Source: a virus
Taxonomy: Duplodnaviria; Heunggongvirae; Uroviricota; Caudoviricetes
Length of the DNA: 4,166 bases
IMG/VR virus record: IMGVR_UViG_2645727555_000033
Strand: one strand, 5' to 3'
Part shown: piece by piece, positions 1,595 through 3,350 of the stretch
Layout of the letters: each line of letters begins with the position of its first letter
How positions within the stretch are numbered: position 1 is the first letter of the stretch
Position numbers and translations under genes: made by a program
Notes under the pieces: model-generated
Databases searched by the model: none
The model's input: the letters and a program-made list of their open reading frames with translations, nothing else
Told to the model about the DNA's origin: nothing

Positions 1595-1783
1595 GTGTTA
1601 AGCACTGATCGGTTTATACGTGAAAAAGAATGCAAAAAACTAACCGGCCTTAGCCGTACGTGTCGCTACCGCCTGGAAAAGGCCGGACAATTCCCATCAC
1701 GTCGTAAACTTGGCGGTCGTTCCGTTGGCTGGTCTTTATCCGAGGTTCTGGCCTGGAAGGATAGCTGCAAGGCAGTTCATTAA
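1595..1783 (+). CDS. alpA: AlpA/Vis-family phage transcriptional regulator (wHTH, excisionase-like), 62 aa
   Basis: GTG start at 1595 preceded by a strong Shine-Dalgarno AAGGGGG (1583-1589). The protein MLSTDRFIREKECKKLTGLSRTCRYRLEKAGQFPSRRKLGGRSVGWSLSEVLAWKD has the AlpA pattern (TGLSRSTIYRL..G.FP....LG.RSVGW...EV..W). Its position directly downstream of a P4-type integrase is typical. Confidence 0.8.
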   Translation: MLSTDRFIREKECKKLTGLSRTCRYRLEKAGQFPSRRKLGGRSVGWSLSEVLAWKDSCKAVH

Positions 1784-1789
1784 TCACGC

Positions 1790-1808
1790 TGGCGGCACAC
1801 AGCCGCCA
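1790..1808. repeat. Perfect palindrome TGGCGGC-acaca-GCCGCCA just after the alpA stop
   Basis: Read directly: 7-bp arms with a 5-nt spacer. It is not followed by a U-run on either strand, so it is more likely a binding site or stabilising hairpin than a terminator. Confidence 0.45.
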
Positions 1809-1931
1809 CACATCAATCATCTGAACACAGAGCTATAACCATGAAGATTGAATATACGCCAGAACGTGGGCGGGGATTCGTTCGCCCTGGTGAAACTGAA
1901 AAACAACAAAATTGGGGTTTTTCAGGCATAA

Positions 1932-2000
1932 CAAAAAGCGCCCAGTTACCTGAGCGCCTTTGTGAACGATTAACCTGCTGCACAAAAAATAAATATGAGC
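1932..2000 (-). ncRNA. Candidate small RNA of about 65-70 nt (extended -10 promoter plus intrinsic terminator)
   Basis: On the minus strand there is a perfect extended -10 element TGATATAAT (plus coordinates 2015-2007) with no good -35 box. About 45 nt downstream of the predicted start sits a GC-rich hairpin GCGCTCAG-GUAA-CUGGGCGC (plus 1957-1938, 7 of 8 stem pairs, GNRA-type loop), followed immediately by UUUUU (plus 1937-1933). No ORF with a ribosome-binding site lies between promoter and terminator. Confidence 0.3.
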
Positions 2001-2053
2001 ATTGGAATTATATCAACTGTGTGAAGAAGCGCCACAATTGCCGGATTACAGGC

Positions 2054-2080
2054 AAAAAAATGCGACCTATGATGGTCGCA
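2054..2080 (-). terminator. Rho-independent terminator of the minus-strand cassette
   Basis: On the minus strand: stem TGCGACC, loop AUCAUA, stem GGUCGCA (plus 2080-2061), followed by UUUUUUU (plus 2060-2054). It lies about 75 nt downstream of the stop of the 61-aa ORF. Confidence 0.6.
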
Positions 2081-2156
2081 AAAATATGATATACATGTTG
2101 ATTACACTATGCATCGACAACGATGCCACATTTTTGGCTGGTTGGCAAATCTGTCA

Positions 2157-2342
2157 TCAGGGCGGACAACAACGCCACGATCTCATCTTTCTTGGGCAAT
2201 TTTTAAGAAAATCCTCAAGGGCAAATCTTTTTGGCCTTGCTTCCTGTTCATGGTCAGGCATTTCATCCATTTCTCTTAATTTTTTTTCTACCTGTCTTTC
2301 AAGTATGGATAATGCGATTTCCCGTAATTCTTCGTTGTTCAT
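2157..2342 (-). CDS. Hypothetical small protein (61 aa), highly charged with a Cys-rich C-terminus
   Basis: ATG at 2342 is preceded by a strong Shine-Dalgarno (ACAGGAGTAGACA-ATG) and an in-frame stop just upstream. Protein: MNNEELREIALSILERQVEKKLREMDEMPDHEQEARPKRFALEDFLKNCPRKMRSWRCCPP. A terminator follows downstream. I do not recognise a family. Confidence 0.5.
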   Translation of the reverse strand: MNNEELREIALSILERQVEKKLREMDEMPDHEQEARPKRFALEDFLKNCPRKMRSWRCCPP

Positions 2343-2363
2343 TGTCTACTCCTGTAAAGAAAT

Positions 2364-2390
2364 GCGCCGTAGTTCCTCACACCACGGCGC
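2364..2390 (-). promoter_or_regulatory. Intercistronic hairpin between the 34-aa and 61-aa ORFs (possible attenuator)
   Basis: GCGCCGT, a 13-nt loop, then ACGGCGC (2364-2370 and 2384-2390). On the minus strand it is followed by AUUUCUUUAC and then the Shine-Dalgarno of the 61-aa ORF. It sits about 10 nt after the stop of the upstream 34-aa ORF. Confidence 0.3.
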
Positions 2391-2399
2391 TGATAGTTT

Positions 2400-2504
2400 T
2401 TATCCTTTGGGTTCTATGCCGCGTTGCTGTAATTCTTTGCGGATTATTCGCTTTATCCAGGCAGCAAGAGAATCATCGCCGTCCTGTTGTTGTGCCTTTT
2501 CCAT
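2400..2504 (-). CDS. Hypothetical 34-aa ORF (leader-peptide-like or small protein)
   Basis: Translated by hand from the minus strand: ATG at 2504 to TAA at 2402-2400, giving MEKAQQQDGDDSLAAWIKRIIRKELQQRGIEPKG. It is below the size cutoff of the supplied ORF track. The Shine-Dalgarno is weak (GGGAAAAG). Its position immediately upstream of a hairpin and the 61-aa ORF is the main support. Confidence 0.3.
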   Translation of the reverse strand: MEKAQQQDGDDSLAAWIKRIIRKELQQRGIEPKG

Positions 2505-2572
2505 CTTTTCCCGTAAGTCAGGATCTAAACGGAACTGGAACGGAGGATTACCACGCCTTTCGTTTTTGTGTG

Positions 2573-2628
2573 TTGACACGTTAATTACACCTCATGTAAT
2601 GTATTTATGTGTAATGACACATTACACA
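2573..2628 (+). promoter_or_regulatory. Promoter/operator region: consensus -35 TTGACA with four TGTAAT/ATTACA half-sites
   Basis: TTGACA at 2573-2578; a possible -10 TAATGT at 2597-2602 (18-bp spacer). Half-sites: ATTACA 2584-2589, TGTAAT 2595-2600, TGTAAT 2610-2615, ATTACA 2621-2626. The last two lie inside a perfect 9-bp inverted repeat TGTGTAATG-aca-CATTACACA (2608-2628). The operators overlap the spacer, -10 and predicted start, a classic repressor-controlled layout between divergent transcription units. Confidence 0.45.
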
Positions 2629-2646
2629 CAATCAACACAAAAAGCA

Positions 2647-2679
2647 AAGCCCCGCACTGTAGGAGCAGTAACGGGGCTT
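2647..2679. other. Hairpin presenting a Shine-Dalgarno copy (UAGGAG) in its apical loop
   Basis: 8-bp stem AAGCCCCG/CGGGGCTT (2647-2654 and 2672-2679) plus an inner 4-bp stem ACTG/CAGT, with loop TAGGAG (2660-2665). The heptamer TAGGAGC (2660-2666) is repeated exactly as the real ribosome-binding site of the first operon gene (2698-2704). On the minus strand the hairpin is followed by a U-rich run (CUUUGCUUUUUGUG), so it could also act as a minus-strand terminator. Confidence 0.4.
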
Positions 2680-2708
2680 CTAACCAACAACGTAAACTAG
2701 GAGCCGTT

Positions 2709-2903
2709 ATGGTTGCCGTAAATCATATACCACACCTTGTACACACACAAACGGCCTTTGTGTGGCGTTTTCTGGCACTGAGTGCCGGAGAATCTCAAAT
2801 CATCCACGTAACCGCCTGGAGGGAACGCGAAGCGCGTAGCCGTTGCCCGTCCGGTTGTGTTGCTGTATTCGCCGCCCGTATTCGTCAGGGGGTAGGCTTA
2901 TGA
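2709..2903 (+). CDS. Hypothetical small protein (64 aa), first gene of the plus-strand operon
   Basis: ATG at 2709 with Shine-Dalgarno TAGGAG five nt upstream. Its TGA stop overlaps the next start (ATGA at 2900-2903). Codon usage looks enterobacterial. Protein: MVAVNHIPHLVHTQTAFVWRFLALSAGESQIIHVTAWREREARSRCPSGCVAVFAARIRQGVGL. The longer track ORF from 2607 has no ribosome-binding site and is rejected. Confidence 0.45.
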   Translation: MVAVNHIPHLVHTQTAFVWRFLALSAGESQIIHVTAWREREARSRCPSGCVAVFAARIRQGVGL

Positions 2904-3133
2904 GTCAGGAAATCACACTACAACAGGCAGCAGAACGCGCCCACCAAATCGAAGTTATTTGCGCACTGGCAGAGGATTACCCTGGCATGATGACCGACAG
3001 CGAATCAGGGGCAATCATCGGCTTACTTAAACGCCTTAGCGGTGAGGTCTGCGTATTCCTGAGCGATGAACAGGAAAGAAGAACGCTTATTTCTAACGAA
3101 AAAAAATGCGGAGGGGTACACCATGTGCAATAA
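2900..3133 (+). CDS. Hypothetical small protein (77 aa)
   Basis: ATG at 2900 with a G-rich Shine-Dalgarno (GGGGGTAGG), coupled to the upstream stop by ATGA overlap. Protein: MSQEITLQQAAERAHQIEVICALAEDYPGMMTDSESGAIIGLLKRLSGEVCVFLSDEQERRTLISNEKKCGGVHHVQ. Confidence 0.6.
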   Translation: MSQEITLQQAAERAHQIEVICALAEDYPGMMTDSESGAIIGLLKRLSGEVCVFLSDEQERRTLISNEKKCGGVHHVQ

Positions 3134-3350
3134 AACCACACCGGACGCAGCCGCCGCCGCACTCACTACGCTGATGCACGCGCTTATTGATATTGAATGC
3201 ACGGCAGAGCTTGCACAAAAGGAAGAACGGGAGGAATACACATTGTTCGCCCTGGAATGTATCCGATACACCGCCACGCGGTCGCTGAATGACGCTAAAA
3301 ATATTCTTGTTGCTGATTGTGAAAATGGGGAGGGGGGGGGTTATGCGTGA
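3123..3350 (+). CDS. Hypothetical small protein (75 aa); its 3' end carries a G9 tract
   Basis: ATG at 3123 preceded by GGAGGGG, overlapping the end of the previous gene by 11 nt. Protein: MCNKTTPDAAAAALTTLMHALIDIECTAELAQKEEREEYTLFALECIRYTATRSLNDAKNILVADCENGEGGGYA. The last codons run through GGGG-A-GGGGGGGGG (3327-3340). Confidence 0.5.
   Translation: MCNKTTPDAAAAALTTLMHALIDIECTAELAQKEEREEYTLFALECIRYTATRSLNDAKNILVADCENGEGGGYA
3332..3340 (+). repeat. G9 homopolymer tract at the junction of the third and fourth operon genes
   Basis: Read directly: nine consecutive G at 3332-3340, preceded by GGGGA. The tract encodes the C-terminal Gly residues of the upstream ORF and also serves as the ribosome-binding site of the downstream ORF, whose ATG is at 3343 in the +1 frame. 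Confidence 0.9.

Follow-up and report, generated by a model that had tools for sequence, protein, structure and literature searches.

In the phage-inducible islands of Gram-positive bacteria, repressors of the Stl/Rpr type are encoded divergently from the replication and packaging operon and keep the island quiescent. For the islands of Gram-negative bacteria the existence of a repressor has been called 'unclear' (PMC6092414), and in those of Escherichia coli AlpA activates its own promoter, with its overexpression alone triggering excision and replication (PMC6092414). We found no later description of a protein repressor for these islands in the searchable literature. Two phage immunity regions offer further points of reference: immI of P22, with the Arc and Mnt repressors, and the immunity region of satellite P4, in which the eta open reading frame (ORF) follows an alpA homolog and, in the passage of PMC10111431 that cites Forti 1999, 'Eta translation prevents termination'. 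Here we describe a stretch of 4,166 nt from a viral record (IMG/VR record IMGVR_UViG_2645727555_000033; the whole stretch is called the window), in which a small unit of two genes runs on the reverse strand, divergently from an icd-like gene. We think it rather probable that this unit is the repressor or immunity module of an E. coli phage satellite, lying antisense inside an Eta-like plus-strand ORF. The upstream gene of the unit encodes a ribbon-helix-helix (RHH) protein that is most likely the autoregulated immunity repressor of the island, a reading that follows from its conservation, its divergence from the icd operon, the palindromes at the icd-ward promoter and the allele-specific operators. 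The features of the module are:

2579-2400, minus strand: gene for a 59-aa RHH (Arc-like) protein with a GTG start, the predicted repressor (profile, fold, conservation).
2593-2588, minus strand: Shine-Dalgarno sequence GAGGTG, 8 nt 5' of the GTG (sequence reading).
2563-2631, both strands: predicted operator cluster of TGTAAT/ATTACA palindromes (repeat search).
2573-2602, plus strand: candidate icd-ward promoter, TTGACA (2573-2578), N18, TAATGT (2597-2602) (sequence and layout).
2399-2351, minus strand: intercistronic junction, with a 9-nt spacer, a 27-nt GC hairpin (2390-2364) and then AUUUCUUUACAGG (conservation, folding).
2342-2157, minus strand: gene for an orphan small protein of 61 aa (core motif, synonymous changes).
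2080-2054, minus strand: intrinsic terminator of the unit, stem 2080-2061 and T7 run 2060-2054 (scan, folding).
1841-2700, plus strand: Eta-like ORF antisense to the entire module (open frame, with wobble positions common to both minus-strand genes).

The original prediction had read the upstream gene as a 34-aa leader-like ORF (2504-2400). This was a mis-call: the 34 codons are the C-terminal part of the 59-aa ORF at 2579-2400, the shorter reading has no comparable ribosome site, and the form with the GTG start is the one conserved across genera, with a strong Shine-Dalgarno sequence at the equivalent start in all RHH alleles of our module sample (62 instances from 50 viral-database contigs and E. 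coli genomes, with about 20 RHH alleles). The profile hidden Markov model (HMM) and structure searches that had been proposed were run, and for the upstream peptide they recovered the RHH family and fold. The 59-aa protein matched the Arc-like repressors of PHROG_228 (E = 2e-6), and a profile built from it and its sister alleles matched P22 Arc over its full length (residues 9-54, E = 0.026) in a profile search of the PDB. Its AlphaFold2 model has an extended segment (residues 12-19) and two helices (20-33 and 38-52), the helices with a predicted local distance difference test score (pLDDT) above 90, and the Foldseek matches of this model were almost all RHH proteins (NikR, CopA_SO, Arc, CopG, PutA, AmrZ and ParD), at E values above 1. 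Both the sequence profile and the strand-helix-helix layout of about 45 residues are thus those of the RHH family and, as judged from profile and predicted model, the 59-aa protein is an RHH (Arc-like) protein and not a leader peptide. Sister alleles at the same island position carry the annotation of the YlcI/YnfO family (NF041551), known from the lambdoid prophages DLP12 and Qin, and this family shares the RHH pattern and the module architecture; the window allele, at 20 bits (E = 5e-4) against a curated cut-off of 30 bits, falls outside it and represents a distinct Arc-like branch with the C-terminus ...QQRGIEPKG. Literature searches on YlcI/YnfO and on RHH repressors in these islands returned no relevant report.

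Homologs that are 80-98% identical were found in Shigella, Citrobacter, Serratia, Klebsiella, Pectobacterium, Pantoea, Yersinia, Proteus, Xenorhabdus and Mannheimia. The RHH gene of Serratia, Yersinia and Xenorhabdus also occupies this site: it is encoded on the opposite strand, flanked by alpA (or a Bro-N/AntA-type gene) on one side and on the other by an operon that runs to a primase, and across genera it is always divergent from the icd-to-primase operon. The suggestion that the unit encodes a repressor or immunity function therefore stands for the upstream gene, as a 59-aa RHH protein with predicted allele-specific operators over divergent promoters, and falls for the 34-aa leader.

With regard to these operators, the window has palindromes at 2584-2601 and 2605-2631 (the latter with 12-nt arms and a 3-nt gap) and a degenerate copy at 2563-2583, and the TGTAAT palindromes are kept together with the RHH protein in Serratia, Yersinia and Xenorhabdus. 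Every RHH allele is accompanied by its own palindrome in about three copies at equivalent positions (for example CTGGATTCCAG, GGTGTTGAACACC, GGTGTAAGACAC, TGTGCGCACA and GGTAATTACC). The palindromes adjoin the RHH gene and co-vary with the allele of the beta-strand, their operator role being a prediction from sequence; this co-variation of recognition strand and putative operator is the strongest evidence that the RHH protein represses the icd-ward promoter, and its own, in a sequence-specific manner. One predicted operator lies inside the spacer of the candidate icd-ward promoter and another just downstream, and the -35 element overlaps RHH codons 1-3, which may be why divergent RHH alleles retain an 'MST' start. 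On the icd-ward strand, 14 of the 20 RHH allele groups show the arrangement TTGA[CA]N, N16-18, TAnnnT, in which the palindrome of the allele directly follows the -35 element. From these patterns we infer DNA binding, repression and the transcription starts. The unit had been described as self-contained, which does not hold, as its predicted operators overlap the candidate icd-ward promoter and the unit itself lies antisense inside a long plus-strand ORF.

The hairpin that had been noted between the two genes proved to be real on the minus strand, where a 10-bp stem with 7 GC pairs and a 7-nt loop (2390-2364) is followed by AUUUCUUUAC. As minus-strand RNA it folds with a free energy of -22.1 kcal/mol (z = -3.3) and is terminator-like by the scan, compared with -15.4 kcal/mol (z = -1.7) for the plus-strand RNA. 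Its tail, with 5 U in 8, passes the scan rule but is atypical for an intrinsic terminator. A role as bidirectional terminator was rejected, the plus-strand form folding weakly and having no adjacent U-run. In 62/62 instances the spacer between the RHH stop codon and the hairpin is exactly 9 nt and that between the hairpin and the next ATG exactly 21 nt, and therefore both genes are always in one frame. The piece containing hairpin and Shine-Dalgarno sequence (2326-2397) was found in 1503 of 5426 complete E. coli genomes, at up to 7 places per genome. Among 48 distinct junctions, a stretch reaching from some 40 nt before the hairpin start to some 60 nt beyond it keeps an identity of 0.83-0.96, which drops to about 0.6 deeper into both genes; the 13 nt past the stem (ATTGCTTTACAGG), which lie outside the search pattern, are nearly invariant, and natural variants of the hairpin retain G.U pairs that can form only in the minus-sense RNA. 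Because of the interrupted U-tract we read the hairpin as a leaky terminator or 3'-stabilising element, which would probably set a high ratio of repressor to downstream product. Since repressor and downstream alleles are shuffled on its two sides, the hairpin block may also serve as a recombination linker.

A terminator-like hairpin between two ORFs would also suit an attenuator, in which translation of a short upstream ORF is coupled to termination at the hairpin and so governs the 61-aa gene, as the original prediction had considered; the fixed distance of 9 nt from stop codon to hairpin means that a ribosome at the stop could affect folding. This explanation is very improbable, as the upstream ORF is a conserved 59-aa protein of DNA-binding type instead of a leader, and folding gives one stable hairpin and no alternative anti-terminator. 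The distal terminator of the unit (2080-2054) is canonical, as had been stated, with a 7-bp stem containing 5 GC pairs and a U7 tract (free energy -14.8, z = -2.6).

Just past this terminator, the minus strand of the window may encode a small antisense RNA (1933-2015): a perfect extended -10 box (TGATATAAT) at 2015-2007 is followed about 45 nt further on by a strong terminator (stem about 1957-1938 and U5, free energy -20, z = -3.6), which predicts a transcript of about 65-70 nt opposite the plus-strand ORF downstream of alpA. Downstream of the small gene, TGATATAAT is also found in 8 further loci, and Rfam gave one small RNA match to this region, below threshold (24 bits).

The second gene, at 2342-2157, had been predicted correctly as a 61-aa ORF with a strong Shine-Dalgarno sequence (AGGAG at 2353-2349, 6 nt 5' of the ATG). 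A word-index search with the single sequence returned only 2 proteins, and the family emerged only with an alignment from related loci; a profile search then gave 137 clusters, all Escherichia/Shigella 'hypothetical proteins' and none with a Pfam domain, and an exhaustive HMM search yielded 27 representatives only among 1.84 billion. A related-locus search with the small-protein alignment added no further contigs. Members are 57-80 aa long, with interchangeable N- and C-terminal segments that form mosaic alleles, and have the core P-x3-F-A-L-E/D-x-F-L/V-x-K-Y/C-P/S-R in common. Codons of this core vary synonymously in the minus frame (Leu CTT/TTG, Phe TTT/TTC, Ala GCC/GCG/GCT) while its residues are kept, which marks the 61-aa ORF as truly coding; within allele groups the small gene has 28 nonsynonymous and 19 synonymous changes. 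AlphaFold2 models the protein as all-helical (pLDDT 78), with a long helix (residues 3-27), a linker and two short helices bearing the core motif. The proposed HMM and structure searches found no known family or solved fold for this peptide: there was no meaningful match in Pfam, NCBIfam, PHROGs or PADLOC, tblastn against the phage collection was blank, and Foldseek gave no PDB match to the model. A Cas8g match of a sister allele (0.0006) was treated as noise.

The slot downstream of the repressor is taken in Yersinia by a gene for a membrane-type protein of 57 aa and has nothing comparable in Serratia and Xenorhabdus, and repressor and small-gene alleles are shuffled among instances. The suggestion of an accessory cargo module thus fits the 61-aa gene, which occupies the position of an exchangeable cargo behind the repressor, after a near-invariant hairpin junction of 52 nt. 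The protein is perhaps a helper-phage-directed or repressor-modulating factor, and a toxin role is unlikely. An integron-like reading of the cassette was rejected.

The original prediction had also considered a toxin-antitoxin pair, in which a type II system would have the RHH protein as autoregulating antitoxin and the 61-aa protein as toxin. In gene order and sizes the unit is similar to RHH-antitoxin operons, weak matches driven by the RHH were obtained to VapB (E = 0.012) and to a HicB-like antitoxin (E = 0.2), and one source labels the homologs 'predicted HicB family'. However, only about 7 residues follow helix B of the RHH protein, leaving no toxin-binding extension, and an obligate pair is not seen, as the RHH gene has no partner in Serratia and Xenorhabdus and another one in Yersinia. 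The free shuffling of alleles of the two genes, the lack of any match of the 61-aa protein to a toxin family, defence model or solved fold, and the location of operators on the icd-ward promoter and not only on that of the module itself all point the same way, and we give this explanation hardly any credence.

Two observations concern other occupants or remnants of this slot. In the three Yersinia loci (L179-L181, 3205-3378) the 57-aa protein behind the same RHH gene has a hydrophobic N-terminal segment (MPNKLLWIAVVVTALYF...) and a C-terminus (...SSIEPKG) that echoes that of the RHH protein, and may be a membrane or exclusion-type cargo. In E. coli O157:H7 EC4115 (L003, about 3000-3200) a small-protein member (MTNEELQAIALSMLERQ...KYPRRLKSGKTRPPG) persists in a degraded island remnant with no adjacent RHH gene or integrase and with transposase fragments alongside.

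The module lies opposite a long plus-strand ORF, and gene annotation differs here from genome to genome: PGAP calls a long plus-strand 'hypothetical' or 'Icd-like (pseudo)' ORF in several genomes and the two minus-strand genes in strain E110019. The plus frame that shares its wobble positions with both minus-strand genes has zero stops across the module in 52 of 53 distinct modules. Open stretches are 200-765 codons long, usually start with the codon after the alpA stop or overlap alpA, and end within a few nt of the icd start, inside icd, or continue in frame through icd; in the window the stop codon (TAG, 2698-2700) falls within the ribosome site of icd. Where the frame shifts, successive long plus-strand ORFs overlap, tiling the interval. 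Where the minus strand has no coding sequence, single loci contained 0 stops in 280 and 0 in 353 codons, against 18-25 in the other two plus frames, and for the coding parts of the minus strand synonymous-codon resampling gave a combined P of about 1e-6.8 for a stop-free antisense frame. In 157 control genes of the same islands the equivalent antisense frame was open for a median of 101 and a maximum of 249 codons. In Serratia and Yersinia a long antisense ORF (276-423 codons) also covers the RHH gene.

This openness, together with the PGAP calls and the in-frame continuation into icd at many loci, could mean that the plus strand alone is coding and that the two minus-strand ORFs are shadows of the long ORF. 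The substitutions argue otherwise. By counts from local alignments, the plus frame outside the minus-strand genes has 552 nonsynonymous and 256 synonymous changes (ratio 2.2), which is near neutral, against 40 and 84 (ratio 0.48) for the in-frame part of icd, and even the common N-terminus of the plus-strand ORF (MKIEYTPERGRGF...) changes mostly nonsynonymously. In the RHH gene 18 discriminating substitutions are synonymous in the minus frame but nonsynonymous in the antisense frame, versus 4 of the reverse kind. The ORF in the form seen in the window has no Pfam domain, whereas the minus-strand RHH gene is backed by family, fold, operators and cross-genus conservation, and the two minus-strand genes are annotated in E110019; we consider it highly unlikely that the plus strand is the only coding strand. 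The open frame, the near-neutral protein change and the 18 versus 4 substitutions indicate selection for the proteins on the minus strand and for translatability on the plus strand. The original prediction had named constraint on the plus strand instead as evidence for the antisense ORF as the real feature, and the outcome is divided, with selection for an open frame on the plus strand and amino-acid constraint on the minus-strand genes.

In the window itself an A7 run (2054-2060) splits the plus-strand ORF into 1841-2089 and 2086-2700, and the 82-aa ORF noted earlier downstream of alpA is its first part. FORC_042, E110019 and IMG/VR contig L047 have A8 and a continuous ORF of 286 aa. The homopolymer is also the U-tract of the minus-strand terminator, and the A7 form may just as well reflect a mutation or a sequencing error in the homopolymer. 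As TGA 2087-2089 overlaps ATG 2086-2088 (ATGA), coupled re-initiation is possible.

The ORF runs from the alpA-type gene to the replication operon and holds the predicted immunity determinant, which is the layout of P4 eta. The 286-aa window-type ORF had no Pfam hit, so that no homology to P4 Eta/Ash (PF10554) was seen, and longer plus-strand ORFs in other islands contain Pfam Phage_ASH. The plus strand at 2175-2475 is C/T-rich, with a GC skew down to -0.2 (2175-2399) and an AT skew of about -0.3; Rho loads on C/T-rich RNA of this kind. By analogy the plus-strand ORF may be the equivalent of P4 eta: its open frame and near-neutral evolution are observed, and its mechanism would be that of eta. 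In two loci (L040, 765 codons; L023, 577 codons) a stop-free ORF spans a Phage_ASH segment and continues in frame into the icd-like gene, and as this segment lies inside the ORF, immunity determinants of the RNA type and of the protein type may coexist in one island.

The surroundings identify the element. A megablast search of complete E. coli genomes gave a 99.4% match of window positions 1800-2900 in strain FORC_042, adjoining pepT/roxA, where the gene order is integrase, AlpA-type regulator, cassette region, icd-like gene, small genes, RepA helicase, SSB and PerC, with capsid, protease, portal and head-completion genes 3' of PerC. From this layout the window is the left (regulatory) end of a capsid-forming E. 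coli phage-inducible chromosomal island (PICI), a phage satellite; the cassette module also occurs in a classical PICI-type island. The flanking features of the window are:

1-1230: integrase gene int.
1595-1783, plus strand: alpA (Pfam Phage_AlpA, E = 6e-17).
2647-2679, both strands: GC hairpin between operators and icd (inverted repeat; terminator-type scan and folding).
2709-2903, plus strand: icd-like gene (NCBIfam phage_ICD_like, E = 1.4e-16), head of the replication and packaging operon by its context in FORC_042 and the presumed target of repression.

Read on the minus strand, the hairpin at 2647-2679 precedes UUUGCUUUUU, is terminator-like and has the RHH promoter downstream of it; read on the plus strand, it belongs to the icd 5' leader. 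Its loop (2660-2674, TAGGAGCAGTAACGG) is an 80% copy of the ribosome-site and start region of icd (2698-2712, TAGGAGCCGTTATGG) and could be a decoy or pairing target, recalling the RNA-based control of icd translation in P1/P4-type immunity. Elsewhere in the window, tightly spaced short direct repeats in the interval between int and alpA (1270-1325; GCAACAATG twice, then GGAACAAC and CGAACAAG) could be putative arm-type integrase or AlpA binding sites. Directly after the alpA stop a GC hairpin (1791-1808, GGCGGC-ACACA-GCCGCC), with no U-run on either strand, falls inside the 57 untranslated nt that precede the plus-strand ORF start. A G-rich run at 3327-3340 (GGGGAGGGGGGGGG, including G9), directly 5' of ATG 3343 in an overlapping gene junction, is a slippage-prone homopolymer at a ribosome site. 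In nine loci (L002, 5233-6358; L027, L028, L036, L037, L039, L045, L051 and L055) two modules of repressor, hairpin and small gene stand in tandem, about 570-740 nt apart; the distal one brings a 5' remnant of icd, which suggests gain of the module by recombination between islands.

Taken as a whole, the unit would work as follows. In the quiescent island the RHH protein would bind the TGTAAT palindromes at 2563-2631, near the icd-ward promoter and its own, shutting off icd and the replication and packaging operon and autoregulating itself. The GC hairpin with its U-rich tail would end or stabilise most repressor transcripts, and read-through past it would express the 61-aa gene, with the unit ending at the 2080-2054 terminator. 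A helper phage would turn on alpA and thereby transcription through the eta-like ORF, where ribosomes would shield the pyrimidine-rich read-through RNA from Rho, so that the transcript could reach the operon; this alpA-driven read-through would collide head-on with transcription of the repressor.

Several points weigh against this interpretation. The fold, the conservation and the operator layout are results, and every mechanistic step of the model is drawn from sequence patterns. The strict-rule promoter scan flagged neither the icd-ward promoter nor that of the repressor, and for the latter no convincing -35 element was identified. The plus-strand ORF of the window is broken by the A7 frameshift and has a weak ribosome site at its start, 57 nt past alpA, and the searches failed to assign the 61-aa protein a family, fold or function. 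Most module instances came from a pattern that fixes the lower stem, so that the sample is biased, and the related loci, drawn mostly from E. coli islands, are not independent in phylogenetic terms. A loosened form of the hairpin pattern matched random GC-rich genomes, and the loci from L056 onward that it gave were left out of account. The near-invariance of the hairpin could result from recent recombination instead of RNA function, and given its interrupted U-tract the hairpin may not terminate at all. Finally, AlpA induction has been published with no need for a repressor, and the RHH protein may therefore only fine-tune expression.

This last point leads to the explanation that the RHH protein acts only locally, on a self-contained moron cassette, or regulates replication copy number in the manner of CopG, and that AlpA alone governs induction. 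The sufficiency of AlpA overexpression (PMC6092414) agrees with it, as do the islands with two tandem RHH modules, of which the distal one lies beside an icd remnant only, and the P4 CI-RNA/Ash region present at some loci, which could supply immunity. On the other side, the operators of the proximal module are consistently in the spacer of the icd-ward promoter, and the RHH gene is the conserved element at this site across genera, with the cargo varying behind it; a purely local role is thus unlikely, though not negligible, and we retain the immunity repressor as the reading of the RHH gene.

For the Gram-negative islands in general we propose tentatively, as a possibility that remains on the doubtful side, that they have a tiny RHH protein as master repressor, with many immunity alleles, encoded antisense within a drifting but open ORF that is kept for shielding from Rho, and that the switch is set by repressor transcription versus translated read-through. 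The locus provides a concrete candidate repressor, and the repressor alleles, more than 20 in number and each with its own predicted operators, form a ready-made test set. The module is present in roughly one quarter of complete E. coli genomes and the repressor throughout the Enterobacterales, and the arrangement explains why pipelines alternate between one long plus-strand 'hypothetical/Icd-like' call and two small minus-strand genes. The 61-aa family, a satellite gene that diversifies rapidly and has no known relatives, is therefore a sensible starting point in the search for a new helper-phage interaction. If true, the P4 eta mechanism would extend to a much larger group of satellites, and an antisense ORF that exists only for translation would be an unusually clean natural case of selection on translatability and not on protein, with one stretch of DNA used on both strands, one selected for its protein and the other solely for being translatable.

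An RHH immunity region and a translated ORF of the P4 eta type are both known, and it is their combination that appears to be undescribed in the searchable literature. The repressor proposed here resembles those of the Stl/Rpr type in being encoded divergently from the replication and packaging operon and in that it would hold the island in a quiescent state; Stl proteins, however, are large helix-turn-helix proteins of a fold unrelated to RHH, and in contrast to their derepression by a helper-phage protein, which is not evidenced here, Gram-negative induction is reported to act via AlpA (PMC6092414). In P22 immI an RHH protein of about 55 aa binds palindromic operators over closely spaced divergent promoters, as is predicted here, and Arc heads its own small operon before a second gene, as does the RHH gene of the window. 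Arc is also the best sequence match among solved structures and a good fold match, with marginal similarity (E = 0.026). The second gene of immI encodes the Ant antirepressor of about 300 aa, whereas its counterpart in the window encodes a 61-aa orphan protein, and the element here is a satellite island whose target would be an icd-like, replication and packaging operon. A variable accessory gene directly behind the repressor, presumably expressed in the quiescent state, is shared with lambda cI-rexAB, although the cargo here is a soluble helical protein of 57-75 aa with no assigned exclusion phenotype. With the P4 immunity region and its eta/kil ORFs the locus shares a long ORF between the alpA-type gene and the replication genes, with the immunity determinant, here a predicted one, embedded in it. 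In P4, on the account in that part of PMC10111431, translation of the ORF is needed against premature termination of read-through, and we infer the same anti-termination role here. Unlike P4, the window contains no Ash domain (Pfam), and Rfam, with two sub-threshold chance matches over the whole window, gave no C4, isrK or CI-type RNA; the embedded factor of P4 is the CI RNA, on the same strand as the ORF, and that of the window is a predicted protein repressor on the opposite strand.

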